This document shows, piece by piece, positions 18,265 to 31,880 of a DNA stretch of 32,947 nucleotides. Made by a program: the position numbers and the translations under genes. The DNA comes from a virus. The stretch lies in UHGV virus genome UHGV-0038968. One strand, written 5' to 3'. Numbering within the stretch: position 1 is the first letter of the stretch; every line of letters begins with the position of its first letter. The notes beneath the pieces are model-generated. The model saw only the letters and a list, made by a program, of their open reading frames with translations, had not been told where the DNA came from and made no database searches.

Positions 18265-18759
18265 TCAGATTGTCAGAAACGGGTTAGTGGCTTTCTTCTT
18301 CCCCGCCAGGCCAATCAGACGCTGGCGGCTGCTGGGGTCGAGTCCGAGCATTGCCCCCGTGCTGCTCATCTCGGACTCCTGTTCTTTTTTGGCGGTCAGC
18401 TCCGGATTTTTGACCATGCCGCCCATTGCACCGGTGATGGTGTTGCCCTGTCTGGCAATATTTTTCACGGCACGTCGCCAGAATTCATAGGCCACACACC
18501 ACCGCTCAAGTACCGCCAGGTCAGTCACGCACAGCAGGCCCTGACCGCAGAGTTCTTTGGTTGTCAGTTGCCACATGATCGTGGCGAGAGGGAGATCTTC
18601 TTCAGCGAACCACTCCGGTGGCTCAACACCTTTGATGGGCGTAAAAACAGGTTCATCTTTATTCAGGGCTCGCTTGCCGGGGTTTCCGGCCAGCGCCTTG
18701 CGCGCCGTTGGCTTGGGGCGACGCCCGGAACGCCCCGCCGTTCCAGCCATATGCGGCAC
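18265..18759 (-). CDS. Terminase small subunit (P27 family-like)
   Basis: 164 aa; basic N-terminus [30 protein letters not shown]; directly upstream of TerL. Confidence 0.75.
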
Positions 18760-18876
18760 TCCTGGTTAAATTTCATTTTTCGCGGGTATAAAAAAACGAT
18801 GGGGCGGGCAGTCCGGAAGGCGCGCGGTCGCAGAGATTTGACCTCCCCTTCCCCAGTCTGATGATGACATTAATTA

Positions 18877-19233
18877 TCACTTGAGCCGCTCACGCGCGGT
18901 CTTCGCTGCGTGACACGACCAGCACAGGCTTTCAAGGTTGCTGTCTTCATCAGTACCGCCGTGGGCCTTCGCCTTGATGTGGTCCACGCAGGACGCCTGC
19001 TTCACTATCGCCTGCCGTAGATGGTTCTGACACAGCCCTTTGTCGCGCTTAAGTATCCGCTCCCGGATGACTTCCCACTTTGTTCCGTATCCTCGCTGCT
19101 GCCGTGATTGACCAGGCTTGTAGGACTTCCAGCCTTCACCTTTGTGATTTTCACAGTAGCCAGATGGGTCTGTTGTGGTGTTGCGACAGCCGCGAACACG
19201 GCAAGCCTTTGGTGTGCGCGGTGGCATATTCAC
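18877..19233 (-). CDS. HNH endonuclease (packaging-associated)
   Basis: 118 aa with Cys/His pairs (CRVRGC...C..H, H...WSCH); adjacent to terminase as in HK97-like phages. Confidence 0.8.
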   Translation of the reverse strand: MNMPPRTPKACRVRGCRNTTTDPSGYCENHKGEGWKSYKPGQSRQQRGYGTKWEVIRERILKRDKGLCQNHLRQAIVKQASCVDHIKAKAHGGTDEDSNLESLCWSCHAAKTARERLK

Positions 19234-19290
19234 TCCCTAAAAAACATATAGCATTATCGCAGACACTTAATGAATGCCTGCTGAATGCCA

Positions 19291-19494
19291 CTAATCGTCG
19301 AGTTGCAATACACCGTGCTCAAGTGACTCTGAGTAAGCGATCAGCCCTGTGTATTCAGGGATAATCTCGCCATCATCCGCTTCGAACTCCGGGATTGTAC
19401 CAGTGGTGATGGTGTATTGGGGCTGACCATCTTCTTTCGCGAATGCTGCTAGGTCTTCAATCTGCTTAGCTGTAAGAACTACTGTCATGCTCAT
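19291..19494 (-). CDS. Small acidic hypothetical protein
   Basis: 65-67 aa, Asp/Glu-rich; GAGGT upstream of the second in-frame ATG. Confidence 0.45.
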   Translation of the reverse strand: MSMTVVLTAKQIEDLAAFAKEDGQPQYTITTGTIPEFEADDGEIIPEYTGLIAYSESLEHGVLQLDD

Positions 19495-19552
19495 ACCTCA
19501 GTTGTTAAAAAGCCCCGCTATTGCGAGGCTATGATTGACTAAAGTGATGCTG

Positions 19553-19828
19553 TCAGGTGTGGGTCCAAATGAATTTAACAATCCCAATAATGCTAGCCAG
19601 AACGCCAAAACCAAAAATAAATTGACCACATACCCCTATGATTCCCGATGCAATGGCACCGGCATTTGTCTGAGCATTTTCGTTTATGCTCGCCCCCACT
19701 AGATACATAATCAAACCAACTATGAGAGATGCGATAATCCAATGTTCCACTGCTAATACAATTACAATGCTCAAAATATCTGCTAAACCATCACTATGAC
19801 CACTCACTGCATATCCTTGCTTTGACAT
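19553..19828 (-). CDS. Small hydrophobic membrane protein (91 aa), unknown function
   Basis: Two to three predicted TM segments (ILSIVIVLAVEHWIIASLIVGLIMYLVGA, GIIGVCGQFIFGFGVLASIIGIV); visibly AT-rich. Confidence 0.55.
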   Translation of the reverse strand: MSKQGYAVSGHSDGLADILSIVIVLAVEHWIIASLIVGLIMYLVGASINENAQTNAGAIASGIIGVCGQFIFGFGVLASIIGIVKFIWTHT

Positions 19829-19894
19829 TTGAAAAATTCATCACTGGATTATAATTGTTTACACCCTTCATAGTCGTTCGAATATGATAAAAAA

Positions 19895-20431
19895 TCAATT
19901 GTGGGGGATAGCGTTATTTGACTCTCTCAACGAGTCGTAAATACGTTCACACGTCATCCCGGCGGTGTAGCGTTCGTCAGCGATTCCAGCATAACGTTTA
20001 GCTTCTGCTGCAATATCTCCGAGCATGTCGGCGAACATTCCGGCGTCGGCGTCGGTTGTTTTGCTTCGGACGGCAGCGGCAAGATCAGCGGTGTGCTTTG
20101 CGGCGTCCAGGCGTGCGGCAAGCTTTGTTGCTTCGGTACGCAACTGGCTAACAGTGGCAGACAGGCCAGCAGCAGTGGCAGCAGATTTAGCGGCTTGTGC
20201 TTGTGCATCTTTTACAGCCTCATCACGGGCAATTATGCGCCCTTGTTCAATCCAGCGTGCGGCAGTCTGCGCGTTCGCTTCCTGTGAAGATTCCATGCTA
20301 TTGTGGTCAGCCCACTTCTTTTGCCAGCCCCGCTCACTCCAGATGTTCCCGACAAGAAATGCACCAGCCAACATCAGCAAAACAATGATTGTTTTCCACC
20401 GCGCCTGAACAAAAGCAAAGACCGCTGTCAT
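19895..20431 (-). CDS. Rz-like i-spanin
   Basis: 178 aa; N-terminal TM ([14 protein letters not shown]) then Ala/Gln-rich coiled-coil-like region; follows the endolysin with 4-nt overlap. Confidence 0.7.
19954..20208 (-). CDS. Rz1-like o-spanin lipoprotein, embedded in Rz in an alternative frame
   Basis: Signal-like stretch with lipobox LLASC followed by a Pro-rich mature region; true start may be an internal codon. Confidence 0.55.
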
Positions 20432-21045
20432 ACCAGCAACGCCGCCCGCGCTTTGTTATAACGACTATTTCTGTCAGCCAGTCCATTCTGGCCACCGTTG
20501 ATGATCTGCGTTACACGGACAACATCACCTGAATACATCAGACAACCACGTAATGTGAAATACCATGCAGCAGAACGGGCTGCATGTTTCTCCTGTGTCA
20601 GCAACTCTGGTGTGCTGATCAGATCCAACTTCAGCGCCGCACCGCATTTGGCGTAGTTCTCGCGGCCGGTGATTTGAAGCAGGCCACGACCGCGATATTT
20701 CCAGCCGTCACCCTGGCTGTTATTCCCCATGCGGTCACCATAAACCAGATTGGCTATTTGCGGCTGGTGGGCTACCTGCTTACCATCGACACGCCCCAGC
20801 ATTTCACACTGATAAGGCGTCAGGCGTTTACTAAAGGTTTTCTTCAGCCCGTCTACCGAGTAGTTGAAGCTTTCCACCAGCGAGGTAAAACCAGCAGATT
20901 CATGCCCAACTTGTGCAATGAACATGGCCTGATCGTTAACTGCTGTGATTCCAAACTCTTTCATTGCAGCATCAATGTGCGGAAACCAGCGCGCAGCCAG
21001 CCCGGCGCTAATACCAGCCGCCTTTTGAAATAATTGTTGGTTCAT
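20428..21045 (-). CDS. Endolysin, glycoside hydrolase family 19 (chitinase-like lysozyme)
   Basis: 205 aa; resembles the GH19 endolysins annotated as putative chitinase in enterobacterial prophages; flanked by holin and Rz. Confidence 0.8.
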
Positions 21046-21326
21046 TAGTGCCTCAGATGATCAACCAGACGTGCAACGTTGCCTCTGACGGCCACCAGCA
21101 CGGAAAGAAAAATAGTGTTCGCCACGATAATGGGCCATGAGGAATGGGGATAAATCCCACAGAGATAGGCCAACGGAACAGCACTGTATGTAACAGTAAT
21201 CAGCCAGGCTAAACGTGAAACCCAAGGACGATGCCGCGAATCACCACGACGATAAAACATCAGAGTAATAACAACACAAGCACATAACAGCGCATTTATA
21301 GTTGCTGTCGGGTCATTTAGCTCCAC
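21045..21326 (-). CDS. Holin or antiholin-like membrane protein
   Basis: 93 aa; two to three hydrophobic helices; between the first holin and the endolysin. Confidence 0.5.
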   Translation of the reverse strand: MELNDPTATINALLCACVVITLMFYRRGDSRHRPWVSRLAWLITVTYSAVPLAYLCGIYPHSSWPIIVANTIFLSVLVAVRGNVARLVDHLRH

Positions 21327-21699
21327 CTGAACCTCCCCGGCGCGTTATGAGCGCCACCAGCGAGCCGATATCCTGATTATTCAGGAACGTCAGGATTTTA
21401 ACGGCTAAAGCAGAGACGATTACGGCACCAATAGCATCCAGAGGTTTATCACTGTATCCGGTCAAGTTCGCCAGCTTGGAGCCAACCAACCCAGAGCAAA
21501 GAATCCCGGCAATATATGACACGATAAAATATGCCAGTCGGCGCGATGCACTCAGATCTGCAGCTGTTGCTATGTAGAATACAGCCCCTGCAAATGCGCC
21601 AAATACAACGCCGTAATCAGTTCCGGTCAGCAGTCCATAAACACTGGCACCCGTCAGGGCACCACCAGCCAGCCCAGTACCGGAAATCGGATCGGACAT
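21313..21699 (-). CDS. Putative holin
   Basis: 128 aa; Gly/Ala-rich TM helices, basic C-terminal tail (RRGGSGGAK); first gene of the lysis cassette. Confidence 0.6.
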   Translation of the reverse strand: MSDPISGTGLAGGALTGASVYGLLTGTDYGVVFGAFAGAVFYIATAADLSASRRLAYFIVSYIAGILCSGLVGSKLANLTGYSDKPLDAIGAVIVSALAVKILTFLNNQDIGSLVALITRRGGSGGAK

Positions 21700-21745
21700 T
21701 TAGCCCCCTCTTAATTGCTGTTGGTCCTCTCAGAACGAGGGGAAA

Positions 21746-21770
21746 CAAAAAAGGCCGCATTAAGGCGGCC
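21746..21770 (-). terminator. Intrinsic terminator between the Q-lysis moron and the holin
   Basis: Minus strand GGCCGC-CTTAAT-GCGGCC then TTTTTT. Confidence 0.6.
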
Positions 21771-21789
21771 TTGGTAAGGTATAGTTTTT

Positions 21790-22386
21790 TTAAGATAAAC
21801 TTTGATTGATATACTCATGACACCCAAAAATAAAGGCGTTTTGTGCATCAATAAATGACTTTTTTTCTTCCGGAGTAAAATACCCTTTTGTAAAACATAC
21901 TTTTAGCGCTTTTTGAAGATCTGCCGTCAGGGTTATCAACTTACAACCTTCCTCATCAGGCCTTATTAATAGAAGTAATTTATTTTTACTTATTTCAGCG
22001 GCCTTTATTGGAACTTGAATCTCCTCAGGGAAAACACCCTTAGCCAATATATCCATATTCTTATTTCCGACCAGATGCCATTGCTCAAATGTGCTGGCCA
22101 ACATAATTACGTCTGTCACATGCTCAGCGCCAGCAAAACGTATTTGTTGCGCCAATTCTTTATTAGTATTCAAGTGAGCCTGTAATGTGGCTAAGGCAAA
22201 ATTTTCTTTGATTGCCCTGTATGCAACCCAACCAGTTATTCCTGCGGCAATAACGCCTGCAAGAGCAGTAATGAGTGTTTCAAAAGGAAAGGAAGAACTG
22301 ATTTCAATTGGCGGTAATTTTTCTATTACCAAGGTCAACTCGCCAGTAGTTTTTTCGAAAGCGTACGGTACGTTTTGCCAAGTCAT
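21790..22386 (-). CDS. Hypothetical single-pass membrane protein (moron between Q and lysis genes)
   Basis: 198 aa; one TM helix (ITALAGVIAAGITGWVAYRAI) after a ~35-aa N-terminal segment; AGGAGG 6 nt upstream of the ATG; visibly AT-rich; no family recognised. Confidence 0.65.
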   Translation of the reverse strand: MTWQNVPYAFEKTTGELTLVIEKLPPIEISSSFPFETLITALAGVIAAGITGWVAYRAIKENFALATLQAHLNTNKELAQQIRFAGAEHVTDVIMLASTFEQWHLVGNKNMDILAKGVFPEEIQVPIKAAEISKNKLLLLIRPDEEGCKLITLTADLQKALKVCFTKGYFTPEEKKSFIDAQNAFIFGCHEYINQSLS

Positions 22387-22416
22387 GAAGCCTCCTGAGT
22401 TTCAGAGGAATCATAA

Positions 22417-22441
22417 CAAAAAAACCCGCTCAATGGCGGGC
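22417..22441 (-). terminator. Intrinsic terminator immediately downstream of Q (tR'-like)
   Basis: Minus strand CCCGC-CATTGA-GCGGG then TTTTTTT. Confidence 0.6.
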
Positions 22442-22492
22442 TCTTAATGTTGTGTTGCTCAGTTCGCTTTAACGTCCCGAGCCTACCACAAT

Positions 22493-23071
22493 TTAAGCAC
22501 TTTCTTGCTCACTCTGCAACTTAAATCTGTCGCTATTTGTGCCGAATGCGTCACAAACTGGAGCGTACAGGATCGATTCTGCAAGACTTAGCCAAGTGTC
22601 AATGCGTCGACGACAGGTGATCAGCGGCCAGTCAGGATGTTTAGCCTGCAGTTCATTGGCCATCTGCAACTTGCTCTTACGAAGACGATACCGGTCAACA
22701 ATCACGCTATAGAGCGATCGGTAGTCATCATTCATCAGTACTGAAGCAATGACACCGTCCACTAACAACCCTTCTTCATCTGAACAGAACGCCAGGCCGC
22801 TTTTATTTTTGCTGTTGAGAATTTCACGCAGGTACGCTTCAAGTTCAGGCTTGGTGATACCCGCTATCTTCATCCGGCGTAGCGCTTCATTGATAGCTGT
22901 CTTGGTGATTTTCCCGGATGCCAGAAGCTGGTTAAACATGTTTCCACCACTACCACCGCCGATATAAGACCAGCGGCCCCACATGCGCAACTTGCCTTGT
23001 ATCCAGATACTTTCCAGAGTACGAAGGCGAACCATTTCACCTGATTTGCCAACTTCAGAAGGATTAATCAT
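22493..23071 (-). CDS. Late-gene antiterminator Q-like protein
   Basis: 192 aa; position directly upstream of a short terminated leader and the lysis cassette; translation resembles lambdoid Q family proteins. Confidence 0.7.
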   Translation of the reverse strand: MINPSEVGKSGEMVRLRTLESIWIQGKLRMWGRWSYIGGGSGGNMFNQLLASGKITKTAINEALRRMKIAGITKPELEAYLREILNSKNKSGLAFCSDEEGLLVDGVIASVLMNDDYRSLYSVIVDRYRLRKSKLQMANELQAKHPDWPLITCRRRIDTWLSLAESILYAPVCDAFGTNSDRFKLQSEQESA

Positions 23072-23085
23072 TTAGCATTCTCCAC

Positions 23086-24081
23086 TTACGCCAGTACGCC
23101 TATTGCCAGCGCACGATCGATAAAACGAAATATCAGCTCCAGCTGGGATCCATACTTCTCTTCAAATGCCACGGTATCCGCATGCAGCTCGTCGTGATGC
23201 TTTCTGCACAAAGGCAACACAAAGAGGTCATGCGCTTTTGTACCCATTCCACCCTGACCGTGGCCTATCAGGTGGTGGGGATCATCAGCAGGCTTTCCAC
23301 AACATGCACACGGCTGTGTCTTAACCCAGCGCGTGTACTTTTCATTAACCCAGCGGCGACGTTTCGGGCGTAACATAAAAGACTCCGGCGACTCCGGATC
23401 CACTTTCAGCGCCAGCACCTTTTTCGCTTTATCCTGGATGATGCTGGTGGCAGGAACCAAAGGCACAAGGTCACTTTCCCGGGTGACAGACGGCACAACA
23501 GGCTTCGGTAATCTCAGAGCCTTACGGGCTGCACTTTCCGGTAAGGCATCCGCCAGGTCATTACGAACCAGCCACCAGCACAGTTCCGGCATTGTCATAA
23601 CGTGACTATCATCAAAACCGAGATCCCGACGCACGACAGACAACACCCAGCGAGCACAGTTATCCGTTGCCATTGATTCCAGCCGTTCCGTGAACTGATC
23701 GCGCAGCTGGTTATCGCAGTGCCAGCACAGACGGATTGCGCCCGGAGCGTGTCGCATTGTGGTCATGTTCTCGCTGTGCCAGTCGGAATGAGGCCACTGG
23801 CAGCCTTTTTCACGAAGTAACCAGCTTTCAAGACATTCCACGCCACCAGCACGACGGATCACTGCCTCATTGCGGAACACGGCCCGAACGGCAGGATCAT
23901 CCGCCAGCGGTTGTGATGCAGCCGGAACGGCACCACTGGCGAAAGATGAATAACGTTCCGGCTCAGGCTCCAGCAGGACACGCCCCTGCATAAACAGGGG
24001 CATCAGCTCTGAACCTGGCCTGAACAATACGATCCCCATACGCGGGGCAATTTCAGGGGTCAGTAGTGCTCTCACGGTCAC
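23086..24081 (-). CDS. DUF968 (YdfU-like) protein with C-terminal Cys/His motif
   Basis: 331 aa; C-terminal CACCGK...HHLIGHG...CRKHH; DUF968 genes precede Q in other lambdoid prophages. Confidence 0.6.
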   Translation of the reverse strand: MTVRALLTPEIAPRMGIVLFRPGSELMPLFMQGRVLLEPEPERYSSFASGAVPAASQPLADDPAVRAVFRNEAVIRRAGGVECLESWLLREKGCQWPHSDWHSENMTTMRHAPGAIRLCWHCDNQLRDQFTERLESMATDNCARWVLSVVRRDLGFDDSHVMTMPELCWWLVRNDLADALPESAARKALRLPKPVVPSVTRESDLVPLVPATSIIQDKAKKVLALKVDPESPESFMLRPKRRRWVNEKYTRWVKTQPCACCGKPADDPHHLIGHGQGGMGTKAHDLFVLPLCRKHHDELHADTVAFEEKYGSQLELIFRFIDRALAIGVLA

Positions 24082-24082
24082 C

Positions 24083-24925
24083 TCAATGAACGGTATCGAG
24101 CAGCTTTAACAGCTCAGGGAATCGGGATTCGAAGAAGTGCGGCTGCGTCTCGCGCGGATTTGCGGGACTGGTGATGTTCTTGCCGAACATGCAGCCTTTC
24201 GCTGTCAGCGACCAGAATTTTTTGATGTTGTTAATCGCGGTACGGCTGTATCGTTCGCGTTGTTCAACGATCCCCAGCTTCGCCATCTGGTGATATGCCT
24301 GATTAGCCGTCAGGCGGATACCATACTGTTTCAGCAGTGCACTCAGCGACAGCGTAGGGCGACTTGAGCCATCAGGCGCGTCAGCAGGAGCATCAATGGC
24401 ATAGCGTGGTGCCAGATTCGGTAAGCCAACAGCCTCCTGGAGTTTCTGACAGGCCCCAAGCACAGATGAGTTAGACAGGTTTAACTCCCGGCGCATAAAG
24501 TCCAGCAGAATCACGCCAGCCTGCATCTTGTCAGCAGCCTGTCCGGATAATTTTTCAGGTGCGCTGGTTACCATATCGAAAGTACGGATCACCTTCAGAT
24601 GGAATGACGGGCTGATCCACATTGCATAGGCATACACCAGTTCTTTGCAGACATACGTTCCCCGTTCATTTCCCCCATGAATCACACTCACCGGGTCAAC
24701 ACCCAAATTCTGGGTGTTGGTCAATTCATGAACAAGTTCAACAGTTTGTTGGCTGGAAAGAAACTTTCCTGGCTCCTTGGTTCTGGCATTTGCACCAGAT
24801 GCTACTGCTGCGCGATGCAGATCGTTCAGGCTGTAACGTCCATAAGCATCACGACGAACTTCAATACCATCAATGACCATCAGATTATTCATACTTCGTT
24901 TCTCCTCTTGATCAGGCGGCTGCAC
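24083..24925 (-). CDS. KilA-N domain protein (antirepressor-like)
   Basis: 280 aa; N-terminal KilA-N-like region (MNNLMVIDGIEVRRDAYGRYSLNDLHRAA...SPSFHLKVIRTFD); likely true start at internal Met near 24892. Confidence 0.65.
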   Translation of the reverse strand: MQPPDQEEKRSMNNLMVIDGIEVRRDAYGRYSLNDLHRAAVASGANARTKEPGKFLSSQQTVELVHELTNTQNLGVDPVSVIHGGNERGTYVCKELVYAYAMWISPSFHLKVIRTFDMVTSAPEKLSGQAADKMQAGVILLDFMRRELNLSNSSVLGACQKLQEAVGLPNLAPRYAIDAPADAPDGSSRPTLSLSALLKQYGIRLTANQAYHQMAKLGIVEQRERYSRTAINNIKKFWSLTAKGCMFGKNITSPANPRETQPHFFESRFPELLKLLDTVH

Positions 24926-25301
24926 CCGCCGTTTTCTCGTACTTACTGATAGTGATCTCGACCTTCCCTTCCGGGATAACCGGTCCCCACTCCACCAGCA
25001 TTCTTTTCACCTGACTGTCGTCTTCCCACACACCCGCGTGGGTCAGGGCGTCAAACAGCGCCTTGTTATAGTTGTCCAGATCGCGGATCCGGTTATCCGG
25101 AGGAAACAACACGATCTCCACTGAAGCAGGTGCCGACGTTGGTTTTGGCAGACGACGTAACTGCTCAACTATTGCTGCACACGCCGCGCTCTGGAATTTG
25201 CGCCCCGCCGCGCTTATCAGGCTCTTACCTGCAAACGCCCCTTGGTTGGGGTGTCGCCAGTACGTGTTCACGCTGGGCGGAAAAGGCAGTATTAGCTTCA
25301 T
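24912..25301 (-). CDS. rusA: Holliday junction resolvase RusA
   Basis: 129 aa; N-terminus MKLILPFPPSVNTYWRH characteristic of RusA. Confidence 0.85.
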   Translation of the reverse strand: MKLILPFPPSVNTYWRHPNQGAFAGKSLISAAGRKFQSAACAAIVEQLRRLPKPTSAPASVEIVLFPPDNRIRDLDNYNKALFDALTHAGVWEDDSQVKRMLVEWGPVIPEGKVEITISKYEKTAGAAA

Positions 25302-25624
25302 ACTTTCAGCTCCCTCTCATGTAACCAGTGGGCTGCACGCAGCCTGGCGTTTTCCTCACCGGCAAGCAGTGAGCGGATAATCCCGACCGCCTCGCTGTCG
25401 TCGTCCTTCACCGCGGTATGAAGCGTTATCCCCCGGGCCACGCCACGCTTTATCGTGATGACGCCTTTTTTCTCCAGTGCGCGAAGATGCTCCACCGCTG
25501 CATTCACTGAACGGTATCCCAGCATGGTTGCCACCTCCTGATTGGTTGGCGGAAAGCCACGCTCTTTCTGGTAAGAAATCAGCATATCCAGCACCTGCTG
25601 CTGGCATTGAGTTAACGTCGTCAT
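25298..25624 (-). CDS. LexA-like winged-helix DNA-binding protein lacking the peptidase domain
   Basis: Strong resemblance to the LexA N-terminal domain (QQQVLDMLISYQKERGFPPTNQEVATMLGYRSVNAAVEHLRALEKKGVI); start chosen at MTTLTQ where ATG overlaps the upstream stop (TAATG). Confidence 0.7.
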   Translation of the reverse strand: MTTLTQCQQQVLDMLISYQKERGFPPTNQEVATMLGYRSVNAAVEHLRALEKKGVITIKRGVARGITLHTAVKDDDSEAVGIIRSLLAGEENARLRAAHWLHERELKV

Positions 25625-26118
25625 TACGCCCCCACGTAATTCCCTGACAGATACCACTCATCACTCGATACAGCGCGCTTGCTGCTTTTCCGTAAACACT
25701 GCTCACGACGCGCCAGAAAATTGTTTCGTTCTGGCTGGGAGTGGCTTTCACGGAATGCCACCATCCACACCGTTGCAGCACGACGGTATAAGCCCCTGGA
25801 CTCCAGTTCTTCCGCCTGGCGGGTCAGGCACAAAATCTCCCGCGGGTCGTTAGTGCCGACATAGAAATTGCGCACAGGTCTGGTTTCACGAACTGGTTGC
25901 GGTTCCGCCTCCTGCGCTCTCTCAGTCAGGCGCGGGAAATGTCTGCGTGTATCCCCTTCACAACGGTGAGCCACACGACCACTCTGACGTAACTTGCTTG
26001 CTGACTGAAGAACGCGCTGCCGTGAGTAACCTGCAAAAGCATCCGCAATGTCTCCGGAAGTACACCCCGGATGGGCTTCAATGAATTTCTGAACGTCATT
26101 CAAAAGACTCATGATCAC
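25624..26118 (-). CDS. PerC-like regulatory protein (putative)
   Basis: 164 aa; C-terminal LESRGLYRRAATVW matches the PerC/Pch-type motif as I recall it; N-terminal half looks winged-helix-like. Confidence 0.45.
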   Translation of the reverse strand: MIMSLLNDVQKFIEAHPGCTSGDIADAFAGYSRQRVLQSASKLRQSGRVAHRCEGDTRRHFPRLTERAQEAEPQPVRETRPVRNFYVGTNDPREILCLTRQAEELESRGLYRRAATVWMVAFRESHSQPERNNFLARREQCLRKSSKRAVSSDEWYLSGNYVGA

Positions 26119-26933
26119 CCCCTGAATCCTGCCGGGATCTGGCTGTAGTCCACGTTGTCGTAACTGGCTTTGAAGTACGGGTCCTCGCGTCTGGCTGCAG
26201 ATACCGCAGGAACTTCCCAGGATTCTTCGAAATGACGATCCGGACCAAAGAACGTGACAGCCTGTTTCACAAATTGTGTGCCGCTGTTACCCATCGCAGA
26301 TACCCAGCCCGCGTAGCGTTTCACACCTTCCAGCATGGTTTCGGGTTTTACCCCCTCATTCAAACGAGCTTTCCAGGCTTTGAGGGCTGCAGATTTTGAA
26401 TTGCCACCAGCACGTTTGGGGTATGCCAGCCATGCCTGCTCAAACTCCGGAGAGTATTCCGGTCGGTTTGAACGAACTCGCACGGACTCATCAGCAGATG
26501 CACCAACAGCTATTGGTTCATTGACTGGTTCTTTGACTGGTTCAAAAGAGTGACTGGTTCTGGGTGAATCTCCTGCACCACCCCCTGGTGCAACTCCTGC
26601 ACTACCTGGTGAATTTGCTGCACTAGATAGTGAATTATTTGCACTACCCCCTAGTGAATCTCCTGCACCATCAAGATGAAGGAGATAGATATTACTTGAG
26701 TTACCTTTTTCACCTTTCCGGGTGACTTTTTTTACCAGCCCGGAATCACAAAGGGCCGCAATATGATTCATCACAGAACGTTTGCTAATCTCGCACTGGT
26801 CAGCAATATGCTGGTAGCTGGGCCAGCACTCACCCTGATCGCTGGCATTATCAGCCAGCTTGATCAGAACCAGTTTTCGCAATGGATTACCCACTCGAAT
26901 TTTCATCGCTTTAACCATCAGCTCCATACTCAT
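26115..26933 (-). CDS. Replication initiator / replisome organiser (lambda O-like, N-terminal HTH)
   Basis: 272 aa; N-terminal HTH (LRKLVLIKLADNASDQGECWPSYQHIADQCEISKRSVMNHIAALCDSGLV); low-complexity central region encoded by iteron-like repeats. Confidence 0.7.
   Translation of the reverse strand: MSMELMVKAMKIRVGNPLRKLVLIKLADNASDQGECWPSYQHIADQCEISKRSVMNHIAALCDSGLVKKVTRKGEKGNSSNIYLLHLDGAGDSLGGSANNSLSSAANSPGSAGVAPGGGAGDSPRTSHSFEPVKEPVNEPIAVGASADESVRVRSNRPEYSPEFEQAWLAYPKRAGGNSKSAALKAWKARLNEGVKPETMLEGVKRYAGWVSAMGNSGTQFVKQAVTFFGPDRHFEESWEVPAVSAARREDPYFKASYDNVDYSQIPAGFRG
26564..26671. repeat. Five ~18-bp direct repeats (iteron-like) inside the replication initiator gene
   Basis: GGTGAATCTCCTGCACCA, GGTGCAACTCCTGCACTA, GGTGAATTTGCTGCACTA, AGTGAATTATTTGCACTA, AGTGAATCTCCTGCACCA at 26564, 26588, 26609, 26630, 26654 (spacing 24/21/21/24). 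Confidence 0.6.
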
Positions 26934-27166
26934 GCTGCACCTCCGAGATGCTTCATGTTTTTTCCGGAGCGAAAGGCAATAAGCGGCATACTGACGCGGT
27001 AATTGCGGCCCAGCGGTTCACAAATCACCTTCTGACATTCACAGTCAACCAGGCTGACACGTAGAACATGCCCTGCTGGCGTGGTGTACCACTGCCCAAC
27101 TGTGGGTGTTGATATTTTTTTACGCTGAAATAAACGGTAAATGTTGAGGAGCAACGGATTAAGCAT
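26930..27166 (-). CDS. Small hypothetical protein (78 aa, Cys-containing)
   Basis: Overlaps both neighbours by a few nt in an operon-like arrangement; no family recognised. Confidence 0.4.
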   Translation of the reverse strand: MLNPLLLNIYRLFQRKKISTPTVGQWYTTPAGHVLRVSLVDCECQKVICEPLGRNYRVSMPLIAFRSGKNMKHLGGAA

Positions 27167-27995
27167 GACGATGCCCTCCGCTGATATTCAGGAGACGGTG
27201 AATATGAAAATTAGCCTTATCCGCCAGACGAATACGTTCAGCTTGCAAGTTAAGAAGGGTTTCTACCAGAACCTGATGTGCCTGCGGATCCGAAAGAGTT
27301 ACCTTGCGCAGAGCACGTAGTGCAGTTGTTACATAACTGAGTTTATGTAAGTCTTCATCATTCAGACGAGTGAGGGCTGGGACAGTAGCCATGATGGCAG
27401 CCTCCTTGATCGGTGAAATACTTCCACCACCGGAAACGCCAATTTCGCTGGTGGTGAACTGAACGGGGTTGGCGTAACCGGTGATCAAGGAAACCGGCGC
27501 ATCTTTCGATGCCCCCGCCCAGCCCACCATAACTTTGATGTGAGCAAATGCGGACGATAAAAAAGACGCTGGCGCGTCATATATCGCCTTGATCAATTCC
27601 AGGACGCCAATCCCGGCACCCGCTTTATAAGGTGCCTGAACAGTGTAACGTCCCGGAATGGCAGAATCAATGTGCTGGTGGTCCTTCACACTCAACAAAA
27701 TCACGCCTGAATTTCCACAAAGGGCTAAAGCACTCATGCGGGTAGTCTTTGCGAAGATAGATAACGCGCTGTGTTTCTGACTCCCAACGAATAACATGAA
27801 CATAAAGTCCTCTTCCGTCACGAAACCAGCGGTTAAGTTCCTGCACAACTCGCCCCCCACAGTCAGGTAAAGTTCTCTGTGGTTACTTACAGCCAGGAGA
27901 TTTGGTAATCTGCATTCATGCCGTAACAACACGTGTTCAGCGACGCTGACCACCAGCTGTTGCGACAAACGGTTATTTGCCGTTAAACTGTTCAT
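27159..27995 (-). CDS. Hypothetical protein (278 aa), unknown function, early-right operon
   Basis: Long ORF tightly packed between the CII/YdaT-like gene and the small ORF; no motif recognised (no Walker A). Confidence 0.55.
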   Translation of the reverse strand: MNSLTANNRLSQQLVVSVAEHVLLRHECRLPNLLAVSNHRELYLTVGGELCRNLTAGFVTEEDFMFMLFVGSQKHSALSIFAKTTRMSALALCGNSGVILLSVKDHQHIDSAIPGRYTVQAPYKAGAGIGVLELIKAIYDAPASFLSSAFAHIKVMVGWAGASKDAPVSLITGYANPVQFTTSEIGVSGGGSISPIKEAAIMATVPALTRLNDEDLHKLSYVTTALRALRKVTLSDPQAHQVLVETLLNLQAERIRLADKANFHIHRLLNISGGHRHA

Positions 27996-28561
27996 GCGTT
28001 AGTTTCTCCACAACCAGAAGCAATCGACGCCACGACGCCCGGAGCTGCACACTCGCGGGCGTCATTACTTTCTGAAATGCAAAAGATTTTGTAGACCAGT
28101 GCTGCATGCTCCTGCAGCTTCGAAATTGAGAGATACAGCTCGTCGTTAATTGCTGTCTTCTCATGCGGTTCCACTACACCGTCTTCGATTGCTGAACGAA
28201 TCTGTTTTGAATAACTGCCGATCTGTTCAATGACTTCCAGCAGACGCTGGTTAATATCGGCGTTGTCCACATCCTCGACGTCAGGAAGAGACACAAAGAC
28301 GCCATTTGCAGACTGCGCCACAGCGTCAGCAATGAAGTGAGTTCCACCAGCACGTTGCAAAATCATTGCCCATCCCAGCGGGAAAATCTGATCGCCATCG
28401 GCACGAAGGCGGTTAAATAATGCGTTCTCTGTTACATCCAGCCAGTCAGCTGCTTCAGCGTAACCACCCGGCAACTTTGCGATAGTTTTTCTGACAGCTT
28501 TCACGTACCACTCAGGCTGTTTTTCTACTTTCCAGTGATGCTTACCCACGGTTAGCCTCAT
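27992..28561 (-). CDS. CII-like / YdaT-like early regulatory protein (putative)
   Basis: 189 aa; second gene after cro on the rightward operon, the position CII-type regulators occupy; assignment tentative. Confidence 0.4.
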   Translation of the reverse strand: MRLTVGKHHWKVEKQPEWYVKAVRKTIAKLPGGYAEAADWLDVTENALFNRLRADGDQIFPLGWAMILQRAGGTHFIADAVAQSANGVFVSLPDVEDVDNADINQRLLEVIEQIGSYSKQIRSAIEDGVVEPHEKTAINDELYLSISKLQEHAALVYKIFCISESNDARECAAPGVVASIASGCGETNA

Positions 28562-28592
28562 CGTTCTGTGGTTAAAAATTGAAAGTGTTCTG

Positions 28593-28793
28593 CTAATCTT
28601 TCGGATAGATATCCGGTCTTAAGTCAGATTTCGTAATTGCACCTGACGTGCATTGCTCAAGTTTTTTAGCCAGCACAAAACTGGCTTTTTTATAGCCATT
28701 GAAAACCAGCCGTAAGTAGCCAGGTGTTGAGCCAACTTTTCCGGCCAACTCGCCCTGCTGTTCTTTGGTTAAAGAGTCCCAATACGCTTTCAT
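28593..28793 (-). CDS. Cro-like (YdaS/Cro family) HTH regulator
   Basis: 66 aa from internal ATG at 28793 (MKAYWDSLTKEQQGELAGKVGSTPGYLRLVFNG...); the longer track ORF would overlap cI; divergent from cI across an operator region; GGAGGT upstream. Confidence 0.65.
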   Translation of the reverse strand: MKAYWDSLTKEQQGELAGKVGSTPGYLRLVFNGYKKASFVLAKKLEQCTSGAITKSDLRPDIYPKD

Positions 28794-28883
28794 ACAATAT
28801 GTACCTCCGGTGTACATATTACATGATTGAAATGAACCTTCAAGATACTTGTACCTTAACGGTACAAGGGTTTTAATTTCGTT
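28794..28883. promoter_or_regulatory. Right operator/promoter region between cro and cI
   Basis: Two palindromes: ATGTACC-TCCGG-TGTACAT (28799-28817) and CTTGTACC-TTAAC-GGTACAAG (28847-28868); candidate minus-strand promoter TTGAAG (28838-28843) and TAATAT (28816-28821). Confidence 0.55.
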
Positions 28884-29558
28884 ATGAAAACAATCCATGA
28901 CATCCGGCGGTCTAACGCCAGAAAATTGAGAGATGGTGTTGGCGGGAATTCTTCCTTTGCCACTATGATTGATCGCGAGCCAACCCAGACCAGCAGGTTT
29001 ATGGGAGATGGTGCTACTAAAAATATCGGTGACAGCATGGCACGACACATCGAAAAATGTTTCGACCTGCCTGTCGGATGGCTCGATCAAGAACACCAGA
29101 CAACGAACATCACAAAAAAACCTGATGTTTCAATCACTAATAAACAAATCACATTAGTCCCTGTCATATCATGGGTACAGGCCGGAGCATGGAAAGAAGT
29201 TGGATATTCTGAGGTTGATTTGAGCACAGCAGAAACGTATCCCTGCCCTGTACCCTGTGGGGAAATGACTTATATCTTGCGGGTGATAGGTGATTCAATG
29301 ATTGATGAGTACCGCCCGGGAGACATGATTTTTGTCGATCCTGAAGTACCTGCCTGCCACGGTGACGACGTTATTGCATTGATGCACGATACAGGCGAAA
29401 CCACCTTCAAAAGGTTGATAGAAGATGGGACACAGCGTTATCTCAAAGCGTTAAACCCAAACTGGCCTGAGCCTTACATTAAGATCAACGGTAATTGCTC
29501 TATAATTGGTACAGTGATTTTCTCAGGAAAACCAAGAAGATACAAAATCAAAGCCTAA
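28884..29558 (+). CDS. CI-type repressor with C-terminal LexA-like S24 autopeptidase domain
   Basis: 224 aa; N-terminal HTH region, C-terminal VIGDSM (Ser) and TTFKRL (Lys) motifs of S24 peptidases; divergent from cro. Confidence 0.85.
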   Translation: MKTIHDIRRSNARKLRDGVGGNSSFATMIDREPTQTSRFMGDGATKNIGDSMARHIEKCFDLPVGWLDQEHQTTNITKKPDVSITNKQITLVPVISWVQAGAWKEVGYSEVDLSTAETYPCPVPCGEMTYILRVIGDSMIDEYRPGDMIFVDPEVPACHGDDVIALMHDTGETTFKRLIEDGTQRYLKALNPNWPEPYIKINGNCSIIGTVIFSGKPRRYKIKA

Positions 29559-29572
29559 TCAATGTTTATGAA

Positions 29573-29593
29573 CCTGCTTCGGCAGGTTTTTTT
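29573..29593 (+). terminator. Intrinsic terminator after the repressor gene
   Basis: CCTGC-TTCG-GCAGG followed by TTTTTTT. Confidence 0.7.
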
Positions 29594-29597
29594 ATAC

Positions 29598-29631
29598 TTG
29601 ACAATGTACCTTTGGGATACATAATGTACCC
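29598..29631 (+). promoter_or_regulatory. pL-like promoter with overlapping operator
   Basis: TTGACA (29598-29603), 16-17-nt spacer, CATAAT/ATAATG; palindrome ATGTACC-TTTGG-GATACAT (29604-29622) of the same form as the right operator, plus another ATGTACC at 29624-29630. Confidence 0.6.
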
Positions 29632-29751
29632 AAGCGAAACAACGAACAGGCAGGACGCCCACGAAGTAGCCGCCTGGGGCATATGAAGTCCAGGATGATT
29701 CGTTGAGTCATGTTGTGCCACTAGGCACTCATGTTAAAGCAGGTGTATGAA

Positions 29752-30027
29752 ATGAAAGTCCAGATTTTAAACAATAACTGTGAAGTCGTTTGGTCATACG
29801 ACATAGCCGCCCCTGTAGATCAGAGCGGCGATAGCTGGACCAATGGGAAACATCAGATTATGGCTGGAGTTGTGTTCTCTTTACGCCGTGCTTTGGAACA
29901 GGCTGAAGTATTTCCATCAGACCCTGAATGGAAATGGCCTTTTTCTATTTGTCCAAATTCGGAGAGCACATTTCAGAAAATTGGTCAGAAAGTCGCACTC
30001 GAAGAGCATCAGCCAACTGTTTCCTGA
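29752..30027 (+). CDS. Hypothetical protein (91 aa), first gene of the leftward early operon; not N-like
   Basis: Start at MKVQ with AGGTG 6 nt upstream (track ORF begins 29731 without SD); no Arg-rich motif. Confidence 0.5.
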   Translation: MKVQILNNNCEVVWSYDIAAPVDQSGDSWTNGKHQIMAGVVFSLRRALEQAEVFPSDPEWKWPFSICPNSESTFQKIGQKVALEEHQPTVS

Positions 30028-30190
30028 TTTTTTCAGGTAACTCGTCGGCATCGCAGAAACAACAACGCTCGATCATGTTGAAAGCCGATTCGTAGAACTG
30101 TTTCTGCTGAGTGTCGCTGAGACAGGAAAAGAGCGACGTTACGATGATTTTATTAATTGCATTATCAAGTTCTTTTTCATCAAAAGTCAT
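29945..30190 (-). CDS. Hypothetical protein (81 aa), convergent and 3'-overlapping with the previous gene
   Basis: AAGGAAA 6 nt upstream of the ATG; overlaps 29945-30027 with the plus-strand ORF, so one of the two may be spurious. Confidence 0.4.
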   Translation of the reverse strand: MTFDEKELDNAINKIIVTSLFSCLSDTQQKQFYESAFNMIERCCFCDADELPEKIRKQLADALRVRLSDQFSEMCSPNLDK

Positions 30191-30445
30191 TTGATTTTCC
30201 TTTTATGTATACGGGCTTAAAAGGATACCACCGAGCCTGAAGTGGTGAAAAGACAGGCACATAACAGCTAAGTATTTTCAACCAGAGAGAATCCTTAGCG
30301 TTGTGGTGAATGCGGCTCAGCGCACGCGGGTTAAGGTTGAGGCTGACAGTCGACCTTCTGTGGATACCCACCCGTCTGGTGTGCAACCTTCGCCAGGCAC
30401 CGGGAGGCACCCGGCACCACAACTTTATGCTGTGTGTAGTCCTGG

Positions 30446-30490
30446 CGGTACCAGTTTGTACCCTTGCTTCCGGCTGGTACCGTCCTTTTT
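30446..30490 (+). terminator. Intrinsic terminator-like hairpin in the GC-rich non-coding region
   Basis: CGGTACCAG (30446-30454) pairs with CTGGTACCG (30474-30482), 19-nt loop, then TCCTTTTT. Confidence 0.5.
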
Positions 30491-30579
30491 ACAAAACAGA
30501 GAAGAGCATCACCGGACGACGGGCTCATAACCCAATCCATCCGGGCGGCTGCTACCGCAGGTGTTCTTCTCTGTTTTGT
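30491..30579. repeat. 15-bp perfect inverted repeat with 59-bp spacer, upstream of the yfdP-like gene
   Basis: ACAAAACAGAGAAGA (30491-30505) and TCTTCTCTGTTTTGT (30565-30579). Confidence 0.5.
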
Positions 30580-30627
30580 GGAGAAACTAATCGGCCTTGC
30601 AGGGTCGATATGATGAGGAGCAGCAAA

Positions 30628-30990
30628 ATGGCTAGCGAACGCAGTACTGATGTGCAGGCATTTATCGGGGAGCTGGACGGCGGCGTATTTGAAACCAAAA
30701 TCGGCGCAGTTCTCAGTGAAGTCGCTTCCGGTGTGATGAACACGAAAACCAAAGGTAAGGTCTCACTCAACCTGGAAATCGAACCATTTGATGAGAACCG
30801 TGTGAAAATCAAACACAAACTCTCATATGTTCGCCCGACTAACCGCGGGAAAATTTCCGAAGAAGACACCACCGAAACGCCGATGTATGTCAATCGCGGT
30901 GGTCGCCTGACTATTCTGCAGGAAGACCAGGGACAATTACTGACTCTTGCCGGTGAACCTGACGGAAAACTCCGCGCAGCAGGTCATTAA
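30628..30990 (+). CDS. yfdP: YfdP-like hypothetical protein
   Basis: 120 aa from MASERSTDVQ with GAGGAG upstream; the track's N-terminal extension from 30310 looks non-coding; size and order match CPS-53 yfdP. Confidence 0.55.
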   Translation: MASERSTDVQAFIGELDGGVFETKIGAVLSEVASGVMNTKTKGKVSLNLEIEPFDENRVKIKHKLSYVRPTNRGKISEEDTTETPMYVNRGGRLTILQEDQGQLLTLAGEPDGKLRAAGH

Positions 30991-31055
30991 TATCGTTCTT
31001 AATTAACTGATTATTTATCTCATCACTGAATATCTTTATATAGTGAGGACTTATT

Positions 31056-31880
31056 ATGTCTCAGAACTTAGACGCAACCGCAATTAATCAAATCCATGCC
31101 CTTATTTCTGCTCAGGGTGTTAATGAAATTATCAGTAAGATTGGTGCCGATGCTGTGGCATTGCCTGAGAATTTCCGCATTCATGATCTGGAAAAATTTA
31201 ATTTAAATCGCTTCCGTTTCCGTGGTGCGCTTTCCACTGCCAGCATCGATGACTTTACCCGTTATTCTAAAGATCTTGCAGATGAAGGCACCCGCTGCTT
31301 TATCGATGCTGATAATATGCGTGCCGTCAGTGTGCTTAACCTGGGTACTATTGATGAACCAGGTCACGCAGATAACACCGCCACTCTCAAACTGAAAAAG
31401 ACAGCACCGTTCTCTGCTCTGTTGTCTGTTAATGGCGAGCGTAACTCCCAGAAATCACTGGCAGAATGGATTGAAGACTGGGCCGACTACCTTGTGGGCT
31501 TTGATGCTAATGGTGACACCATTCAGGCAACAAAAGCGGCTGCGGCGGTCCGTAAAATCACGATTGAAGCAAACCAGACCGCTGATTTTGAAGATAATGA
31601 CTTCAGCGGCAAACGCTCCCTGATGGAGTCTGTCGAAGCGAAGACCAAAGACATTATGCCAGTGGCATTTGAATTTAAATGCGTTCCGTTTGAAGGTCTG
31701 AAAGAACGTCCGTTTAAATTACGCCTCAGTATTATCACTGGCGATCGTCCTGTACTGGTTCTGCGCATTATTCAGCTGGAGGCGGTGCAGGAAGAAATGG
31801 CTAACGAATTTCGTGATCTACTTGTTGAGAAATTCAAGGACAGCAAAGTAGAAACCTTTATTGGTACTTTCACCGCCTGA
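31056..31880 (+). CDS. yfdQ: YfdQ-like protein (DUF2303)
   Basis: 274 aa, [21 protein letters not shown]...; length and N-terminus match my recollection of E. coli CPS-53 YfdQ. Confidence 0.7.

Follow-up and report, generated by a model that had tools for sequence, protein, structure and literature searches.

The viral genome UHGV-0038968, a stretch of 32,947 nucleotides referred to here as the window, carries on its minus strand a small gene whose 108-aa product is a stand-alone LexA-type winged-helix domain without a protease domain. The protein matches the Pfam LexA_DNA_bind domain (PF01726) over the entire profile (positions 1-65 of 65; E = 2.9e-19; 69 bits, with a cutoff of 23.7 bits). 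It also matches the N-terminal domain of Escherichia coli LexA (1LEA) over residues 2-69 (E = 7e-16; phmmer against the PDB), with about 50% identity to those residues of LexA. A model made with AlphaFold2 (AF2), with a mean predicted local distance difference test (pLDDT) score of 79, gives three helices and a two-strand wing, and aligns by Foldseek with the LexA-DNA complex 3JSO at 1.2 Å over 68 residues (50% identity). The match to the protein family phrog_362 extends over the full length of the protein (residues 1-108 against profile positions 1-106 of 106; E = 6e-59). Translation begins at an ATG in RefSeq; an in-frame GTG at 25657 offers an alternative product of 119 aa. An earlier inspection of the letters alone (the sequence-only reading) had likened this open reading frame (ORF) to the LexA N-terminal winged helix and had supposed it uncleavable for want of the S24 domain, and both proposals hold. 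The Pfam, 1LEA and 3JSO matches agree on the fold, no Peptidase_S24 domain was found in the protein with Pfam, and the chain stops at residue 108. Against the NCBIfam LexA equivalog TIGR00498 it scores 70.8, short of the 110.95 required, and it aligns with positions 1-91 of that 203-position model. The protein has the winged helix of a LexA repressor proper and lacks the S24 domain with Ser119 and Lys156; since it is a DNA-binding domain only, it cannot cleave itself.

LexA touches DNA through residues S39, N41, A42, E44 and E45 (PMC3091678), and four of these five contact residues are kept in the LexA-like protein. In alignments, the contact stretch reads SVNAAVEHLRAL in the window protein and SPNAAAEHLKAL in most family members, compared with SPNAAEEHLKAL in LexA, and the recognition helix of most members departs from that of LexA at one position. 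S39 is invariant, N41 is kept in all aligned homologues except one, and A42 and E45 are mostly kept. L47, R64 and G65 are also invariant across the family, and the residues of the DNA-binding surface form its most conserved part.

Beyond the winged helix, and after a linker that the AF2 model places with low confidence (residues 71-75), the chain is predicted to form a helical hairpin. Full-length relatives recovered at 38-52% identity by an exhaustive HMMER search keep the matching tail pattern, which makes the tail a feature of the family, and the pattern is conserved in homologues of 38-65% identity. A Foldseek search gave no PDB match to the tail structure. This family-conserved two-helix tail takes the place of the S24 autopeptidase and dimerisation domain of LexA, and the simplest proposal, drawn from a comparison with other winged-helix regulators, is that it serves as a dimerisation element. 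Three proteins from the exhaustive search (P0129, P0148 and P0152) carry the LexA DNA-binding domain twice in a row (two PF01726 matches); such single-chain pseudo-dimers would likewise have no need of the LexA dimerisation domain. A retained cleavage site, through which the protein would serve as a substrate or decoy for S24 proteases, was considered because the HMMER alignment sets 'LLAGEE' of the window protein opposite 'VAAGEP' of LexA, that is, opposite the Ala84-Gly85 cleavage site. This candidate was rejected since the AG varies within the family (AN, VG, ER, TR, DD and others in homologues) and the region is predicted by AF2 to be helical.

The gene is widespread in enterobacterial genomes and phages. 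The exact 108-aa sequence is present on at least 1000 public contigs, labelled "LexA family transcriptional regulator", and the gene occurs at 95-99% identity in 2233 of 5426 complete E. coli genomes (about 41%), with up to four copies per genome. It is found in 60 phage records, including SfV (orf42, 'unknown'), SfII, SfIV, cdtI, mEp460 and mEp390, and Shiga toxin (Stx) converting phages of types Stx2a and Stx2c are among the carriers. Length is constant at 104-108 aa across thousands of sequences, and the architecture as a whole (106-108 aa) is conserved across Enterobacteriaceae prophages. The annotation itself is not new, the gene being already named in public databases: phrog_362 is labelled 'transcriptional repressor', and some records mislabel the product as 'SOS-response repressor and protease LexA' or 'RecA-mediated autopeptidases'. 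The gene appears as pham 237 with pfam01726 in a survey of Stx phages, which is silent on function (PMC8136144). The literature searched yielded catalogue entries only and no experimental work on the phrog_362 family. New here are the two-helix tail without a cleavage site, the pattern of contact residues, and the presence in relatives of an SOS-box promoter together with a DinI gene or a RecA paralogue.

This last feature emerged from a comparison of 50 related loci (numbered with the prefix L; mEp460 is L001). One scan of genome contigs returned mostly host lexA of Vibrio and Photobacterium, with only L048-L051 as family members. Nearly all of the related loci have a DUF968/HNH gene downstream of the LexA-like gene, followed by the antiterminator gene Q where Q is recognisable; the DUF968/HNH gene stays there even where RusA, KilA-N, Dam and PerC are absent. 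This constancy reflects either the conserved backbone of a nin-like block or a functional link to the LexA-like gene.

One clade, whose LexA-like proteins are 40-47% identical and belong to the same PHROG (as at L025), comprises IMG/VR contigs and chromosomes of Klebsiella sp. and Enterobacter sp., and its DNA is about 77% identical to that of Klebsiella phages. The motif CTGT-N8-ACAG is strongly over-represented in this clade (52 pooled matches, against 0-17 for other spacings), and 29 loci have a near-consensus SOS box on the strand of the LexA-like gene, 0.44-1.5 kb upstream of it. The order is a terminator, a sigma-70 promoter with the SOS box, a gene for DinI, a RecA paralogue or neither, a phrog_1813 ORF, the LexA-like gene, DUF968 and Q; a phrog_1212 ORF and sometimes RusA follow the LexA-like gene ahead of DUF968 (L025:5209-8174; L013:5507-7998; L038:4538-6593; L048; L049). 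L025 has a strong terminator and, after it, a TTGACC promoter that the box TACTGTTTATTTATACAGTA overlaps; next in line are a DinI gene (Pfam 8e-22), the phrog_1813 ORF, the LexA-like gene, the phrog_1212 ORF, DUF968 and Q. DinI is missing from L013-L017 and L049, where the terminator, a TTGCAA-17-AATAAT promoter and the SOS box stand directly before the phrog_1813 ORF and the LexA-like gene. L037 and L038 have a pair of adjacent boxes, behind which come a phage RecA paralogue (Pfam RecA 2.6e-130), the phrog_1813 ORF and the LexA-like gene. By association, the LexA-like gene of this clade should be read from a promoter that host LexA represses, beside two classic SOS modulators. A gene for a LexA DNA-binding domain linked to dinI or recA behind an SOS box is not described in the literature searched. 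Rewiring of the host SOS response, which the sequence-only reading had raised, is plausible and is supported indirectly by these SOS-box promoters next to DinI or RecA genes.

The element in the window is an SfV/mEp460-like lambdoid prophage, in which the LexA-like gene is part of the delayed-early rightward operon (Table 1). The gene has no promoter of its own, and its start and stop codons overlap those of its neighbours. Beyond Q are lysis, HK97-type head and Mu-like tail genes, and the late genes lie behind the Q antiterminator. The phage repressor carries a LexA-like autopeptidase domain, as had been claimed from the letters alone. The immunity region (28593-29558) is e14-like, with the RefSeq genes ymfK (S24 repressor), ymfT (YdaS/Cro-like) and ymfL (CII-like), and contains operator-like inverted repeats with GTAC at 28790-28826 and 28848-28868. 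A closely related E. coli prophage, identical over 24900..26950, is located at a tRNA-Thr gene beside proA (RefSeq annotation). Just downstream of Q and of a terminator-like hairpin (22445-22420), and ahead of the lysis genes, a 198-aa ORF (21790-22386) occupies the moron position that holds the stx genes in Stx phages. It has no Pfam or PADLOC match, and in the otherwise closely related prophage of strain 20A24 its region is replaced by genes for a nucleoid-associated protein and a hypothetical protein. A PADLOC scan of the module gave marginal matches only and no evidence of a defence system.

Table 1. Coordinates of the LexA-like gene, its parts and the surrounding features in the window.
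Feature	Position	Strand	Remarks
LexA-like gene, phrog_362	25298..25624	-	108-aa ORF from ATG; Pfam PF01726, PDB, PHROG, AF2, Foldseek
Winged helix-turn-helix, residues 1-69	25418..25624	-	Helices 6-22, 28-35 and 40-52; strands 56-58 and 66-68
Recognition helix, residues 39-52, SVNAAVEHLRALEK	25469..25510	-	LexA counterpart SPNAAEEHLKALAR; S39, N41, A42 and E45 kept; E44 replaced by V
Helical hairpin tail, residues 74-108	25301..25405	-	Helices 74-87 and 93-103; pLDDT about 86 (AF2)
TAATG junction	25622..25626	-	PerC-like stop TAA (25626..25624) shares one base with LexA-like ATG (25624..25622)
YfdN-type PerC-family gene	25624..26118	-	164 aa from GTG at 26118; 162 aa from the likelier ATG at 26112
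PerC domain, residues 100-154 of the 164-aa form	25657..25821	-	Pfam
MarR-like winged-helix region, residues 7-61 of the PerC-like protein	25936..26100	-	Weak phrog_1687 match
Replication-initiation gene (HTH_36, DnaD_N-like)	26115..26933	-	Stop overlaps PerC-like start
Ash-family ORF	27159..27995	-	78-aa ORF next in operon order
CII (CP76) gene	27992..28561	-	After YdaS/Cro-like gene
RusA resolvase gene	24912..25301	-	Start overlaps LexA-like stop by 4 nt
KilA-N domain gene	24083..24925	-	Overlaps RusA end; one operon
DUF968/HNH gene, phrog_96	23086..24081	-	Downstream of LexA-like gene
Q-type antiterminator (DUF1133)	22493..23071	-	End of delayed-early block
cI-type repressor, YmfK-like, S24 autopeptidase	28884..29558	+	Peptidase_S24 1.5e-26; RefSeq ymfK; controls LexA-like operon

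The gene directly upstream, named yfdN in RefSeq, had been described from the letters as PerC-like, and a profile search bears this out. The Pfam PerC match (PF06069; E = 8.8e-10) reaches 39.2 bits, with a cutoff of 22.6 bits, although it spans profile positions 5-59 of 90 only; phrog_1324, a 'transcriptional activator', matches at E = 4.6e-77. Products of both lengths (162 and 164 aa) are present in public databases. The NCBIfam ANR (AraC negative regulator) model scores 23.4 bits over residues 98-144, under its cutoff of 32, and a stand-alone ORF at L025 (3095..3400) resembles the N-terminal part of the PerC-like protein, with MarR_2 and HTH matches below or near Pfam cutoffs. Translational coupling of the PerC-like and LexA-like genes, also proposed earlier, agrees with the overlapping stop and start codons and with a GGGGG Shine-Dalgarno-like run read 5 nt upstream of the TAATG, but their adjacency is not conserved. 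The direct junction occurs in 761 E. coli genomes, compared with 2222 that have the full LexA-like gene; mEp460, SfV and most E. coli prophages have a Dam methyltransferase gene separating the two, and in more distant relatives from other genera PerC-like matches are kilobases off or absent. Since every gene in the operon overlaps its neighbour, and since the Dam gene separates the two genes in most relatives, the codon overlap reflects operon packing and the coupling is incidental: the PerC-like gene is a separate neighbour and not one half of a functional pair. The suggested bearing on host virulence loci is likewise weak, as the protein is of the YfdN type with an extra N-terminal winged helix, and among the non-group-1 homologues of O157:H7, PchD does not activate ler and PchE does so less than 2-fold (PMC5931665).

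The best explanation of these features, to which a probability of roughly 0.42 is given, is that the protein acts as a RecA-insensitive surrogate LexA, which re-closes LexA-type operators after induction, in the host or in co-resident elements. In the window phage, its synthesis would have to await an SOS signal and the inactivation of the S24-type phage repressor, and in the Klebsiella/Enterobacter-type clade its production would follow cleavage of host LexA. The protein would be insensitive to RecA*, would dimerise through its helical tail and, because four of the five LexA DNA-contact residues are retained, would probably bind LexA-type (CTGT-containing) operators. With host LexA gone, the protein could in this way silence SOS-box promoters again, whether these belong to the host or to mobile elements in the same cell. 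A precedent is offered by S24 repressors, whose DNA-binding fragments go on repressing until ClpX removes them (PMC10584840), and LexA fragments are cleared by ClpXP. A broader and more doubtful generalisation is that enterobacterial temperate phages share a dedicated, self-limiting SOS off-switch in the form of a tail-dimerising LexA paralogue, deployed either from the early operon (E. coli, Shigella and Stx phages) or from an SOS-box cassette with DinI or a RecA paralogue (Klebsiella and Enterobacter).

Several observations weigh against a surrogate LexA, beginning with the search for its targets. Matches to CTGT-N8-ACAG with at most one mismatch number 16 in the window, against 11.4 expected, which is not significant. 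A position-specific scoring matrix (PSSM) built from 49 boxes of the related loci, whose consensus is exactly TACTGTATATATATACAGTA, gave no match at or above 5 bits, either in the window or across the remainder of the closely related prophage; a control, the host dinB box nearby, scored 12.8 bits. Since the window phage contains no SOS box, any SOS-box targets must lie outside it. No family member keeps E44, which gives way to a small or hydrophobic residue, and E45 becomes L or S in two subgroups (SPNAVALHLRAL, SPNAAASHLKAL), the DinI-linked subgroup included. The SOS-box association is limited to one clade, being absent from the window clade, from L002-L012 and from L040-L045. Where present, such a promoter indicates control by host LexA and SOS-dependent expression; it is no proof that the phage protein binds the box, and phages often carry dinI morons with SOS boxes (PMC7556043). 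Moreover, gp6 of GIL01, the sole characterised phage protein that consists of a LexA DNA-binding domain only, recognises another palindrome and acts as a transcriptional activator (PMC6182141).

The only exact CTGT-N8-ACAG in the window, at 27877-27892 (CTGTGGTTACTTACAG), has a GC-rich spacer and a PSSM score below 5 bits, and is conserved in mEp460 (L001:9935). It falls within codons 34-40 of the 278-aa Ash-family ORF or in a 145-bp gap, the second placement being possible because RefSeq annotates two genes there, one for DUF4222 and a shorter ash; a comparison by codon position at this site rests on 8 differences only. mEp460 itself has two good SOS boxes, one at the start of the DNA methyltransferase gene gp53 (L001 2110-2129; 25 bits) and one inside the cI-like gene gp38 (L001 11161-11180; 27 bits), both in regions that are not shared with the window.

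The example of gp6 suggests another explanation, possible but less probable than a surrogate LexA, in which the LexA-derived domain has drifted to an operator of the phage's own and activates or represses, for example, Q or the timing of late genes, with no action on SOS boxes. A changed specificity has room, given that E44 is lost universally, E45 in subgroups, and the putative dimerisation element is new; as this element is unlike that of LexA, half-site spacing may differ as well. The position of the gene, always in a block that ends with Q and with DUF968 as a near-constant neighbour, and the want of an SOS box in the window phage agree with such a role. However, the inverted repeats in non-coding 18700-23100 and 28500-31100 comprise only terminators or GTAC-type cI/Cro operators and offer no candidate phage-specific operator, and pairs of CTGT and ACAG with other spacings show no clear excess in the window. 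The recognition helix, too, is mostly one position away from that of LexA, whereas gp6 needs K38 of its recognition helix to recognise its site. Action through protein contacts is an unlikely further option: the conserved tail, for which the PDB offers no structural match, might bind host LexA, RecA* or another phage protein and so modulate induction, and small phage proteins that modulate LexA do exist, such as GIL01 gp7. Against this stand the conservation of the DNA-binding surface above all other parts of the family and the absence of the LexA C-terminal domain, which RecA engages in the solved LexA-RecA* complex (8TRG).

The sequence-only reading suggested that the phage may control its own antirepressor; spelled out as repression by the LexA-like protein through an SOS-type operator, in the manner of Gifsy- or 186-type phages, this model is very improbable. 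LexA-controlled antirepressors are known in other phages (186 Tum and the Gifsy antirepressors), and the KilA-N gene taken for the antirepressor does lie two genes downstream of the LexA-like gene. However, it overlaps the end of RusA and leaves no intergenic space, promoter or SOS box between them; no sigma-70-like promoter was found on the minus strand over 24000-28600, and hence none before the LexA-like or KilA-N gene. Within the KilA-N product, the KilA-N domain alone was detected, with no Ant or KilA-C domain, and most related loci with a LexA-like gene have no KilA-N gene. It is scarcely credible that the LexA-like gene is a decaying, functionless remnant of a full-length LexA or cI-like repressor gene. 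Some database entries are indeed fragments or frameshifted fusions, but the constant length across the family, a tail conserved down to about 40% identity, and retention of the gene with precise stop/start overlaps in active phages (SfV, SfII, SfIV, mEp460 and Stx2 phages) all oppose decay.

The interest of the gene rests on its wide spread and on the direct testability of the SOS-surrogate idea. Should binding to SOS boxes be borne out, the DNA-damage switch of induced host cells would be overridden by a gene found in very many prophages, and SOS-driven mutagenesis, the competition among prophages that share a host, and the release of colicins or toxins could all change. An off-switch of this kind, encoded in about 41% of complete E. 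coli genomes, would be an overlooked influence, widely spread, on SOS dynamics, on SOS-dependent mutagenesis and on the induction of co-resident prophages, colicins and Stx phages. If the protein instead serves an operator of its own, it would be the second case after GIL01 gp6 in which a phage has re-purposed the LexA DNA-binding domain, a matter for specialists.

The LexA-like protein and its neighbours can be compared with several known systems. The PerC-like gene shares the name yfdN with a gene of the CPS-53 prophage of K-12, where it stands in a like replication/PerC/Dam context, the K-12 gene order being yfdO-yfdN-yfdM. With its N-terminal winged helix and 162-164 aa, the PerC-like protein differs from the products of the group-1 pch genes, which are 315 bp long (about 104 codons); K-12 yfdN was deleted in that study merely to obtain a clean background (PMC5931665). 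SOS-box-controlled dinI genes are known in PhiKO2, 186 and Gifsy phages (PMC7556043); the Klebsiella/Enterobacter relatives similarly have DinI and a consensus SOS box before the LexA-like gene, whereas the window phage has neither.

With the N-terminal domain of E. coli LexA (1LEA, 3JSO) the protein has its fold in common and retains S39, N41, A42, E45, H46 and L47 in the recognition helix. However, it lacks the S24 domain, the Ala-Gly site and E44, and has a two-helix tail instead; its gene is phage-encoded, lies in a phage early operon, and has no SOS-box promoter in the window. Fragments of S24 repressors (LexA 1-84 and the CI N-terminal domain of a Staphylococcus aureus phage) show that a domain without its C-terminal partner still occupies operators and represses (PMC10584840). 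Those fragments are cleavage products with a newly exposed degron, whereas the LexA-like protein is genetically encoded, ends differently and probably has a dimerisation element of its own. GIL01 gp6, from a Bacillus thuringiensis tectivirus, is 44% identical to the host LexA domain, yet binds a different palindrome and activates a late promoter (PMC6182141); it recognises GACACAC/GTGTGAC, not the host LexA box, and its palindrome lies at -43.5 of that promoter. By its published description, gp6 has only a 14-residue extension that completes the wing, in contrast to the 35-residue helical hairpin found here, and the host clades differ, the LexA-like protein belonging to lambdoid, SfV-like phages. 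The family is thus an uncharacterised enterobacterial counterpart of GIL01 gp6, with its own tail and a LexA-like recognition helix.

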